Part shown: piece by piece, positions 1 to 420 of the stretch | Layout: every line of letters starts with the position of its first letter | Position numbering within the stretch: the stretch's first letter is position 1 | Assembly (NCBI RefSeq): GCF_003334305.1 | Contig: NZ_QOWS01000077.1 | DNA: 420 nucleotides | From: Escherichia coli | GTDB taxonomy: Bacteria > Pseudomonadota > Gammaproteobacteria > Enterobacterales > Enterobacteriaceae | Direction: 5' to 3' (one strand) | The notes under the pieces: model-generated | The model's input: only the letters and a program-made list of their open reading frames with translations | Databases searched by the model: none | Told to the model about the DNA's origin: nothing | Program-made: the position numbers and the translations under genes

Positions 1-420
1 TCCGGGTGCAGTTCCGGGTCCGGCAGCCGGTTTCCTGCCGGGTCCGTCGCATACGGGATATCGATATCCAGGTTCGCCGCCGTGGTGTGGACGCCCGTCA
101 GCCTTCCCGTGTCACTGTAACGGTACTCCCGGCTCTCCTGCGGGCCGCTGATGCGGATTAGCTGTCCGTTGTCGTTCCAGTCGTAGTCCCGGTCAAGCTG
201 CGGGAGGTTCAGGTGCCTGCTCTGTAGCTGCCCTGTGAGGGTGTATGTGCTGGTCAGTTCATATGCTGCATTACTGCCTGCCATGCTGCCGAAGCTGCGC
301 ACCGTCTCACGGTGCAGCCGGTCCCGCGTGTACTCGACCAGCGGTGTTCCGCCCAGCTTCATCCCCGCAAGATAACCGCTGCCATACGTCAGCCACTCCA
401 CCGGCGGCAGACCGTCCGGC
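1..420 (-). CDS. rhs: Rhs-family (rearrangement hotspot) YD-repeat protein, conserved core region; internal fragment, partial at both ends (gene continues beyond both window edges). Paralog not assignable from this window.
   Basis: Seen in sequence: the minus-strand frame with codons at + 419..417 down to 5..3 is open for all 139 codons, while the other five frames each have stops (for example + strand TAA 118-120, TGA 149-151, TAG 159-161 and 184-186). The translation carries YD-repeat-like motifs (DRDYDWNDNGQLIRISG, REYRYSDTGRLTG, LVEYTRDRLHRETVRSFG) that fit the Rhs/YD consensus of conserved Y-x-Y-D followed by G-x-L and a downstream G. GC3 is about 78% by hand count, consistent with genuine coding in this frame. 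Established knowledge: enterobacterial Rhs cores are GC-rich and built from such repeats. No database search was run. Confidence 0.88.

Follow-up and report, generated by a model that had tools for sequence, protein, structure and literature searches.

The 420-nt window of Escherichia coli DNA analyzed here (that is, the whole stretch, positions 1 to 420) lies, with high confidence, within the conserved core of a polymorphic-toxin gene of the E. coli Rhs family (rhsG/rhsH subfamily), the toxin tip of which cannot be read from the window. At least four unrelated C-terminal tips (A, B, C, and D) follow exact copies of these 420 bases, so the toxin/immunity pair beyond the left edge is not inferable from the window. 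The most likely cassette is tip A with its downstream ORF dsORF-h1 (the h1 cassette; ~55–60% of the sampled exact matches), and the next most likely is a putative YkuD-type tip C with a lipoprotein-like candidate immunity protein (~35%); the cassettes of tips B and D are minor alternatives. The finding overall is already known, with a modest leftover interest in tip A and dsORF-h1.

Identity of the window

The minus-strand frame (reverse complement, read from base 2) is free of stop codons in 139 of 139 codons over all 420 bases. Its complete codons occupy + strand positions 3–419, so the gene passes both ends of the window, with its C-terminal side past + position 1. By chance, such openness has a probability of P = 0.0225 in this one frame and ~0.19 when any of the six may be the open one, and because the DNA is 64% GC the open frame alone is weak evidence. 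The Rhs assignment is decided instead by sequence identity: the window matches annotated “RHS element core protein” genes over 420 of 420 bases at 100% identity. Matches to the window were identified in 3,656 of 5,426 complete E. coli genomes, and 284 records match it at ≥99%.

The full-length protein of E. coli SE11 matches the NCBIfam model RHS_core NF041261 with 2,640 bits over residues 1–1261 (cut-off 2,000 bits), and the YD_repeat_2x model TIGR01643 in seven stretches (E = 3e-52). The rhsG and rhsH genes form one core subfamily (PMC2935791), and the E. coli rhsG/rhsH elements (Hill nomenclature, NF041261, dsORF-h1) are the same element as the one sampled by the window, with identical sequence; they share a GC-rich core of ~1,260 aa, an AT-rich extension, a small ORF, and ISAs1/H-repeat sequences (PMC2935791). 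The features of the window are collected in Table 1.

Table 1. Coordinates, strand, and basis of the features of the 420-nt window.
Feature	Position	Strand	Remarks
Internal segment of the Rhs core ORF (YD-repeat shell)	1..420	−	Residues 798–936 of the 1,421-aa SE11 protein WP_000015432.1
YD-repeat motif YRYSDTGRLTGV	90..125	−	Translation; TIGR01643 matches on the full protein
YD-repeat motif YDWNDNGQLIRI	150..185	−	Translation
Left edge flagged in the preliminary description: plain core coding sequence ...IPYATDPAGNRLPDPELHP (codons at 3–59)	1..60	−	Does not contain the boundary motif
Antisense GTG ORF of 51 codons	6..161	+	Open reading frame list

A DPxGL motif was sought in the translation of the window and is absent. 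No annotated feature lies on the + strand over the window in any locus inspected, and the antisense GTG ORF merely reflects high GC across from the real gene and does not belong to the element. The window sequence is thus ordinary and already annotated, and nothing inside it is new, in agreement with the preliminary description, which had also proposed a minus-strand Rhs gene with its C-terminal side past + position 1; the 100% identity and the open frame bear out both points.

Core boundary and tips beyond the left edge

In 15 of 15 loci computed, the boundary between core and tip lies 973 nt past window position 1, at a PxxxxD[P/S]xGL motif. The stop codon follows at 1,429–1,711 nt past position 1, varying with the tip, and tip length ranges from 151 to 245 aa (15 loci computed). 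A small ORF is located downstream of the tip in every locus computed, and GC content falls from ~63% in the core to 36–48% in the tips and 33–38% in the downstream ORFs. The anatomy proposed in the preliminary description (a PxxxxDPxGL-type boundary to the left of the window, then a variable tip, richer in AT, and downstream of it a small ORF with a drop in GC) is therefore what these loci contain.

Two D[P/S]xGL motifs stand exactly 17 residues apart in all four tip types. The second motif is DPLGL with tips B, C, and D and DSLGL with tip A, in which the Asp is retained; the boundary peptide is PVRFIDSLGL for tip A, PIEHIDPLGL for tip B, PIRYTDPLGL for tip C, and PVQRGDPLGL for tip D. In the known autocleavage site the Asp of the second motif is catalytic (PMC8636562), and autocleavage by the two-motif site is predicted for the proteins described here; in the h1 element the DSLGL motif keeps the catalytic Asp and may likewise constitute a site. 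Photorhabdus laumondii Rhs1 and Pseudomonas protegens RhsA share the YD cage, the 17-residue DPxGL pair, a vgrG neighbor, and an immunity gene (PMC8636562). The h1 element differs from both in its DSLGL motif; for the copies inspected here in general, no EagR/DUF1795 gene was seen, and the toxin domains are different.

Over the window the four types agree at 100% identity; toward the boundary they diverge progressively. Among 19 exact matches sampled out of the 284 records, 11 carry tip A, seven tip C, and one tip D; tip B was reached by another route, with the exact window present ahead of it in another two genomes. This tally is complemented by junction counts at ≥99%, which overlap, as a single genome can hold several elements: 156 records for tip A (window to dsORF-h1), 128 for C, 68 for B, and 39 for D. 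Recombination keeps the core near-identical across loci and strains while the tips are swapped, and in consequence an identical window stands upstream of at least four cassettes. An undescribed pair past the edge had been envisaged at the outset; a tip and an ORF are indeed present there, but the implication of one particular pair does not hold, as at least four tips follow the same bases.

We lean toward an origin of the window in an rhsH-type h1 element, with an M91-like tip and dsORF-h1 beyond the left edge. This is consistent with the 11 of 19 sampled exact matches that carry tip A, with the h1 junction count being the largest of the four, and with the presence of the h1 cassette in 1,083 of 5,426 genomes (~20% of complete E. 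coli genomes). However, tips C (7/19) and D (1/19) account for the rest of the sample, exact copies of the window precede tip B too, and no base among the 420 discriminates. The SE11 h1 cassette had been considered as the sole answer and was dropped, as further exact-window matches carried tips B, C, and D.

The window may instead come from a VgrG-linked rhsG-type element in the T6SS-2 region, carrying tip C or, less often, B or D, to which we give slightly less than an even chance. Tip C accounts for seven of the 19 sampled matches and is always found beside VgrG or in the context of the rhsG–tssM deletion, which was already known (PMC10711316); the C, B, and D junction counts also point to this origin. 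Against it, tips B, C, and D together are rarer than tip A in the sample, and the same indeterminacy of the window applies.

Among the exact-window copies several bear a pseudogene annotation, which raises the question of whether the sampled copy is a remnant, either an Rhs gene with a truncation or frameshift or an orphan piece of core that has been displaced, with no deliverable toxin whichever tip it has. One tip A copy (L006) is a pseudogene without its N-terminus beside ISAs1, another locus (L010) is a VgrG/Rhs partial, in two (L013 and L015) Rhs is joined to a truncated tssM, and the homolog in STEC 154 is split by a premature stop (bioRxiv 10.1101/2024.03.05.583533). The sampled copies are mostly intact ORFs of 1,409–1,421 aa, however, and the window itself is without a stop or frameshift; we regard a remnant as improbable.

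Tips and candidate immunity proteins

Each tip type is paired with its own unrelated, same-strand ORF immediately downstream, and the four ORFs are candidate cognate immunity proteins that would neutralize the respective tips.

Tip A is predicted to be a 160-aa M91/NleD-like (Tox-HopH1) zinc metallopeptidase with a minimal botulinum-light-chain-like fold. A zinc-binding HExxH motif (HEFAH) occupies residues 84–88 and is invariant in 16 relatives, as are H84, E85, H88, E114, E115, E123, and R135. The downstream [DE]N that is a Tox-HopH1 signature (Zhang et al., 2012; PMC3482391) is represented by E111–N112, with D/E at the first position in 13 and N at the second in nine of the 16 relatives. 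The match of tip A to Pfam Peptidase_M91 (PF14891) is below Pfam significance (E = 0.002, 18.9 bits), and assignment to M91 is made through transitive homology and the fold: PF14891 matches 10 of the 16 relatives at ≤1e-3 (best 5.9e-9), Hafnia proteins 43–45% identical to tip A are named “M91 family zinc metallopeptidase” by NCBI, and the AlphaFold2 model (pLDDT 86) has a zincin fold related to the botulinum neurotoxin (BoNT) light chain, a relationship documented for M91 (bioRxiv 10.1101/220806). The same tip was earlier predicted as “Rhs-Peptidase M91” (bioRxiv 10.1101/2024.03.05.583533).

Compared with M91/Tox-HopH1 proteins (NleD, HopH1) and the BoNT light chain (M27), tip A is small (~150 aa) and without the BoNT substrate-binding insertions, and unlike NleD and HopH1 it is an Rhs tip rather than a T3SS-delivered protein. 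Two other metallopeptidase families were rejected: Tox-MPTase4 (PF15640, Rhs-CT1) gave no Pfam match to tip A even at E ≤ 10, and 6H56 of the VgrG2b-Cter/Tpe1 family is not closely similar to tip A in structure or in sequence. The STEC Rhs-CT1 (Tox-MPTase4; Ma et al., 2017, via PMC6730261), a PAAR-Rhs with a C-terminal zinc metallopeptidase that is reported to act on the envelope, is likewise an E. coli Rhs metallopeptidase tip, of a family separate from that of tip A.

dsORF-h1 encodes 149 aa with four Cys and an N-terminus that is signal-peptide-like by hydropathy. A metagenomic tip 40% identical to tip A is also followed by a signal-bearing, four-Cys ORF (152 aa), and in a variant h1 cassette tip and ORF co-diverge (72 and 85% identical, respectively) with the motifs kept. 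As its partner appears to be exported, the tip A protease would act in the periplasm of the target, implying a bacterial periplasmic target and not host MAP kinases or SNAREs; a 2024 preprint took the target of the M91 tip as cytoplasmic (bioRxiv 10.1101/2024.03.05.583533). Tip A and dsORF-h1 are probably a periplasm-acting, M91-type antibacterial protease and its immunity protein. The pair would work in a way similar to the VgrG2b C-terminal metallopeptidase/Tpe1 with PA0261/Tpi1 (Pseudomonas aeruginosa, Acinetobacter baylyi), which provides a precedent for a periplasmic zinc metallopeptidase of the T6SS with an immunity protein that has a signal peptide and conserved Cys and is disulfide-dependent (PMC6899460). 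We consider it doubtful that all parts hold jointly, i.e., that the window derives from h1 and that its tip is active, acts in the periplasm, and is neutralized by dsORF-h1.

Standalone tip-A-like proteins (e.g., P0018) have no same-strand small ORF downstream, and are therefore uninformative on immunity. No papers were found under the name “dsORF-h1”, and the “RhsH” of an EHEC paper is z0272, a locus other than the rhsH discussed here.

Tip B is predicted to be a clan-CD, CPD-like (caspase-like) cysteine protease. It has a caspase/CPD-like alpha/beta fold, and a His-then-Cys dyad (H32 and C75) is invariant in 24 sequences; there was no match at E ≤ 10 to Pfam Peptidase_C80 or DUF4347, and no PDB profile match. 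The ORF downstream of tip B encodes a Sel1-repeat protein, which may be its cytoplasmic immunity protein. In comparison with clan-CD CPDs (MARTX/TcdA/TcdB, C80), Tce1/Tce2, and Tox-Caspase, tip B is Rhs-borne and not Hcp-loaded; the Sel1-repeat immunity candidate and the lack of sequence match to Peptidase_C80 or DUF4347 further set it apart from the clan-CD CPDs.

Tip C matches Pfam YkuD (PF03734, E = 3.4e-5), with 21 residues between His96 and Cys118 (~19–22 being the spacing expected of YkuD domains), and is presumably a YkuD-type L,D-peptidase that attacks peptidoglycan. Its downstream ORF has a lipobox-like N-terminus (...LVIGC) and is lipoprotein-like. Tlde1/Tae5 (DUF2778) and Tox-LD-peptidase share with tip C a catalytic His...Cys domain of the L,D-transpeptidase type, an envelope-targeted immunity candidate, and fusion to Rhs; however, the His–Cys spacing is ~9 in Tlde1/Tae5 and 21, as in YkuD, in tip C, which is also unlike Tlde1a in sequence. 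Assignment of tip C to Tlde1/DUF2778 was rejected on this spacing, together with the lack of a match to PF10908 or to the sequence of 7UMA.

Tip D (245 aa) has a CdiA-CT-like N-terminal module; Pfam returned nothing for it, and its last ~70 residues had no match in the searches made. No significant match to a Pfam or NCBIfam model was obtained for tips B and D or for any of the four downstream ORFs, and NCBIfam gave nothing significant for any tip or candidate immunity ORF. PDB sequence searches (tips A, B, and C, dsORF-h1, and the A1/A2 profiles) gave no meaningful match.

These missing matches, the unmatched end of tip D, and a sample that covers 19 of the 284 records, which leaves space for a rarer or fifth tip, are the arguments for a toxin fold and an immunity family past the left edge that are genuinely undescribed. 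We judge this highly improbable, as tips A, B, and C have known folds and belong to classes catalogued in 2012 (Tox-HopH1, Tox-Caspase, and Tox-LD-peptidase, respectively; PMC3482391), and every cassette encountered is a common E. coli sequence with annotation; for each tip, the complete E. coli genomes that contain it in annotated form number from hundreds to about a thousand. The undescribed toxin and immunity gene suggested in the preliminary description were accordingly not encountered: three of the four tips fall into the 2012 classes, and tip A had already been predicted. In the literature searched there was no experimental characterization (toxicity, immunity, or secretion) of the four tip/immunity pairs, so that, strictly, none of them matches an already characterized pair.

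T6SS linkage and significance

VgrG is encoded immediately upstream of the Rhs genes with tips B, C, and D and of some tip A copies (loci L003, L004, L005, L007, L014, L021, L024, and L025), and tssM adjoins the Rhs gene in L013 and L015. The expectation of vgrG on the other side of the window was thus confirmed for many copies, others having IS elements in that position. In the commonest h1 context, the SE11 type, the place of vgrG immediately upstream is taken by DUF3969, a hypothetical ORF, and ISAs1; a VgrG is encoded ~8 kb upstream, on which delivery of these copies may therefore depend. No match of the NCBIfam PAAR model to the full protein was reported, and E. coli Rhs proteins are said to carry a PAAR motif (PMC6730261). 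No EagR/DUF1795 chaperone gene was seen beside the inspected copies.

By analogy with characterized Rhs systems, the ~1,260-aa core would fold as a YD-repeat cage around the C-terminal toxin, and the two DPxGL-type motifs 17 residues apart would form an aspartyl autoprotease that releases it. The Rhs protein would ride the type VI secretion system's VgrG spike into neighboring bacteria, with the small downstream gene encoding an immunity protein that shields the producer.

These loci are textbook Rhs/T6SS competition elements, and their tip/immunity pairs are very common in E. coli. A window in the Rhs core is uninformative about the toxin delivered, because recombination keeps the cores identical while the tips are exchanged; proposals about what lies past the edge of such a window therefore need the flanking sequence. 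If the reading of the h1 cassette given above is true, tip A would represent the first member with antibacterial function in the protease lineage that comprises M91/NleD and the botulinum light chain: a minimal zincin of ~150 aa, delivered by Rhs/T6SS to the periplasm of rival E. coli and cleaving an envelope protein there. It would be blocked by an exported, disulfide-bonded dsORF-h1, representing an immunity family without known relatives, and the root of a lineage whose other known members are host-directed toxins only would then be taken by an enzyme of bacterial warfare. Carried by ~20% of complete E. coli genomes, the h1 pair is a tractable candidate for finding the substrate of an M91-type protease in the bacterial envelope.

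Core identity of the window and anatomy past its left edge

The window is identical at 420/420 bases to annotated 'RHS element core protein' genes of E. coli chromosomes and is matched in 3,656 of 5,426 complete genomes (284 records at ≥99%). In strain SE11 it makes up residues 798-936 in a protein of 1,421 aa. Against NCBIfam RHS_core (cut-off 2,000) that protein reaches 2,640 bits, and the model ends exactly at residue 1261. Translated from base 2 of its reverse complement, the window is open over 139 codons without interruption (minus strand; complete codons at + strand 3-419). 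Because this one frame is open from end to end, the gene runs past both edges, which bears out the preliminary description of a minus-strand gene with its C-terminal side past + position 1. Such a frame is unremarkable in DNA of 64% GC (P = 0.0225 for a single frame, ~0.19 for any of six), and we regard sequence identity, rather than the open frame, as the decisive evidence. The + strand ORFs in the window are antisense by-products. Positions 1-60 are ordinary core coding sequence (...IPYATDPAGNRLPDPELHP), and no boundary motif was found in this stretch. The feature is an E. coli Rhs element that is well known and abundantly annotated. Among the plasmid-collection matches H31 and H32, NZ_OL790696.1 is 4.8 Mb and evidently a misfiled chromosome; NZ_CP104632.1 is a genuine plasmid of 100 kb, and its Rhs core shares 98.6% identity with the window.

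Twenty-five annotated loci with the exact 420-mer were fetched, and downstream anatomy was computed on the first 15. In all 15, the core ends 973 nt past window position 1 at a PxxxxD[P/S]xGL motif, the Rhs stop codon lies 1,429-1,711 nt past position 1, and a small ORF on the same strand comes after the stop codon or overlaps it. The core has a GC content of ~63%, which drops to 36-48% over the tip and to 33-38% over the ORF after it, and VgrG is encoded directly upstream of Rhs in many copies. A DPxGL-type boundary, a variable tip and a small ORF with a GC drop had been placed past the left edge, and vgrG was to be sought on the other side; all of these were found, and the predicted anatomy is therefore correct. 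Ahead of each tip, a pair of D[P/S]xGL motifs lies at a distance of exactly 17 residues from one another. Experiments have established this arrangement as the site at which the Rhs C-terminus is autocleaved, the second motif supplying the catalytic Asp (PMC8636562); a caveat is that the tip A element has DSLGL as its second motif.

Unrelated cassettes downstream of one core sequence

At least four tips, in four unrelated cassettes, lie downstream of the identical 420 bases (see table). Identity between the four element types is 100% across the window, starts to fall ~100 nt past its left edge, and is only 63-72% over the final 93 nt of the core. Identity in the window with divergence toward the boundary is the mosaic expected of tip replacement by core recombination (PMC2935791); rhsG and rhsH constitute one core subfamily (PMC2935791).

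Sequence features of the window and of the four cassettes found downstream of exact copies
Feature	Window position	Core boundary	Tip length (aa)	Downstream ORF
YD-repeat motif	90-125			
YD-repeat motif	150-185			
Tip A ('h1')		PVRFIDSLGL	160	Named 'RHS element protein dsORF-h1' by NCBI
Tip B		PIEHIDPLGL	151	Sel1-repeat protein
Tip C		PIRYTDPLGL	153	130-aa ORF, overlapping the tip
Tip D		PVQRGDPLGL	245	125-aa ORF

Among 19 exact-match records sampled, 11 carried tip A, seven tip C and one tip D; two further genomes, outside this sample, combine the exact window with tip B. Records in which the window-to-immunity stretch is ≥99% identical to the respective reference number 156 (A), 128 (C), 68 (B) and 39 (D), counts that are not mutually exclusive, since a single genome may contain more than one element. 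The cassette of the window itself is not determinable from the 420 bases; we estimate tip A to be moderately likely, tip C a reasonable possibility, and tip B, tip D or another cassette improbable. The suggestion of an undescribed toxin/immunity pair could not be tied to the window, and the cassettes found are common and belong to catalogued toxin classes. No experiments on any of the four tip/immunity pairs were found in the literature searched.

Tips B, C and D

Tip B has no sequence match in Pfam, NCBIfam or PDB. Its structural model (pLDDT 93) matches clan CD cysteine proteases, with gingipain, CHAT, legumain and caspases at later ranks. An exhaustive HMMER search gave 1,363 representative relatives, many of them directly after the DPxGL boundary in Rhs proteins or within PAAR proteins; across 24 sequences, only H32, G33, C75, G78 and G109 are invariant. 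Tip B belongs to the 'Tox-Caspase' class, whose members have been described as toxins at the C-terminus and also in tandem arrays (PMC3482391). Giant proteins of 3,000-6,800 aa (P0031-P0037) contain 4-6 tandem tip B domains that are 34-41% identical to the one from E. coli, and an 'array of caspase-like repeats' architecture of this type was mentioned by Zhang et al. 2012 (PMC3482391). Tce1 and Tce2, putative cysteine-protease effectors with unknown substrates, were reported in 2026 (PMC13323088). No export signal was found in the Sel1 immunity candidate, which suggests that the target of tip B would be cytoplasmic.

Tip C matches Pfam YkuD (E=3.4e-5), and the 21 residues between His96 and Cys118 correspond to L,D-transpeptidase spacing; it belongs to the Tox-LD-peptidase class (PMC3482391). 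Its downstream ORF has a lipobox-like N-terminus (...LVIGC). Assignment to Tlde1/DUF2778 was rejected: there was no DUF2778 Pfam match and no match to solved Tlde1a, and the His-Cys spacing is shorter in Tlde1. Tip C occurs at the VgrG-linked rhsG position, including rhsG-tssM deletion remnants. At two loci (L013, L015:1-4455) the exact-window Rhs is fused head-on to a truncated tssM, matching the 21-kb rhsG-tssM deletion reported in ST410-B/H24 (PMC10711316); these strains have lost the T6SS and kept the tip C toxin and immunity ORF. In strain Ecol_AZ147 (L013:4433-4824) this ORF is annotated as two short ones (WP_001101836.1 and WP_000008098.1) and not as one of 130 aa; the immunity gene is probably frameshifted, beside a decapitated toxin gene.

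Residues 24-175 of tip D are similar (E~1e-7) to the N-terminal portion of toxin chains solved as 'tRNA nuclease CdiA'. The N-terminal part of CdiA-CT is a cytoplasm-entry domain. No match to the last ~70 residues of tip D or to its downstream ORF was found in Pfam, NCBIfam or PDB sequences. In strain HKUOPY1 (L010:1-4731), a truncated tssI/vgrG pseudogene overlaps the 5' end of the tip D Rhs pseudogene, suggesting a deletion that joined vgrG to rhs.

Tip A and dsORF-h1

Of 5,426 complete genomes, 1,083 contain the h1 cassette, almost always with an identity of ≥99%. Its commonest upstream context is DUF3969, a hypothetical ORF and ISAs1 instead of vgrG; one sampled copy is VgrG-adjacent. Between ISAs1 and the h1-type Rhs start there are always two small ORFs (L001:8618-9530, L002, L005:7570-8420, L008-L012:1-130), one for a 'hypothetical protein' of 150 aa (WP_000960004/5) and one for a 'DUF3969 family protein' of 64 aa; neither matched NCBIfam. 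In strain GE3 this pair follows a tip C element, and therefore ISAs1, hypothetical ORF, DUF3969, Rhs(h1), dsORF-h1 and ISAs1 remnant may move as one block. Two loci (L001:1257-5872, L002:2780-7172) have a neighbouring VgrG-linked Rhs with a 'dsORF-e4' cassette, frameshifted in strain 120899; its tip has been modelled, with low confidence, as an ADP-ribosyltransferase (bioRxiv 10.1101/2024.03.05.583533). In strain MS1685 (L026:2519-3942), another Rhs core pseudogene starts 77 nt past a variant dsORF-h1-like ORF, a tandem arrangement consistent with tip displacement.

Tip A contains an HEFAH motif and has a sub-threshold match to Pfam Peptidase_M91 (E=0.002). A homologue search recovered Hafnia proteins 43-45% identical to it, named 'M91 family zinc metallopeptidase' by NCBI, and further relatives both Rhs-fused and standalone. 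Across 16 aligned relatives, H84, E85, H88, E114, E115, E123 and R135 are invariant and H138 nearly so, with an E/D-N pair at 111-112; 10 of the 16 match Pfam M91 at ≤1e-3 (best 5.9e-9). In environmental metagenomes, many tip-A-like M91 domains are standalone proteins of 140-180 aa that lack the Rhs boundary (alignment A1, P0013-P0025), and for P0018, at least, no small ORF lies downstream on the same strand. The AlphaFold model (pLDDT 86, pTM 0.85) is consistent with the documented sister relationship of M91 and BoNT light chains (bioRxiv 10.1101/220806), and is far more distant from GtgA (7.7), NleC (7.2) and the VgrG2b effector domain (4.9). The structure fits the 'Tox-HopH1' polymorphic toxin class, characterized by HExxH and [DE]N, found on Rhs and listed with no immunity family (PMC3482391). 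Membership of the VgrG2b metallopeptidase family was rejected, as was Tox-MPTase4, the metallopeptidase of the characterized E. coli Rhs-CT1. A 2024 preprint predicted 'Rhs-Peptidase M91' at the same locus with an unassignable downstream ORF, stated that no such effector had been characterized, and assumed a cytoplasmic target (bioRxiv 10.1101/2024.03.05.583533).

The product of dsORF-h1 has no match in Pfam, NCBIfam or PDB; its N-terminus is signal-peptide-like and it contains four Cys. Downstream of a metagenomic tip 40% identical to tip A lies an ORF of 152 aa whose product has a hydrophobic N-terminus, four Cys and weak similarity to dsORF-h1. In a divergent E. coli h1 cassette, drift has affected both tip (72% identity) and ORF (85%), yet all motifs are kept. 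By analogy with the P. aeruginosa VgrG2b metallopeptidase, which acts in this way and has a signal-bearing, DsbA-dependent immunity protein, PA0261 (PMC6899460), we infer that the tip A protease would act in the target periplasm and be blocked there by dsORF-h1. The h1 pair, in which the residual interest lies as a putative protease/immunity system, is probably an M91-type antibacterial protease acting in the periplasm, together with an orphan immunity family.
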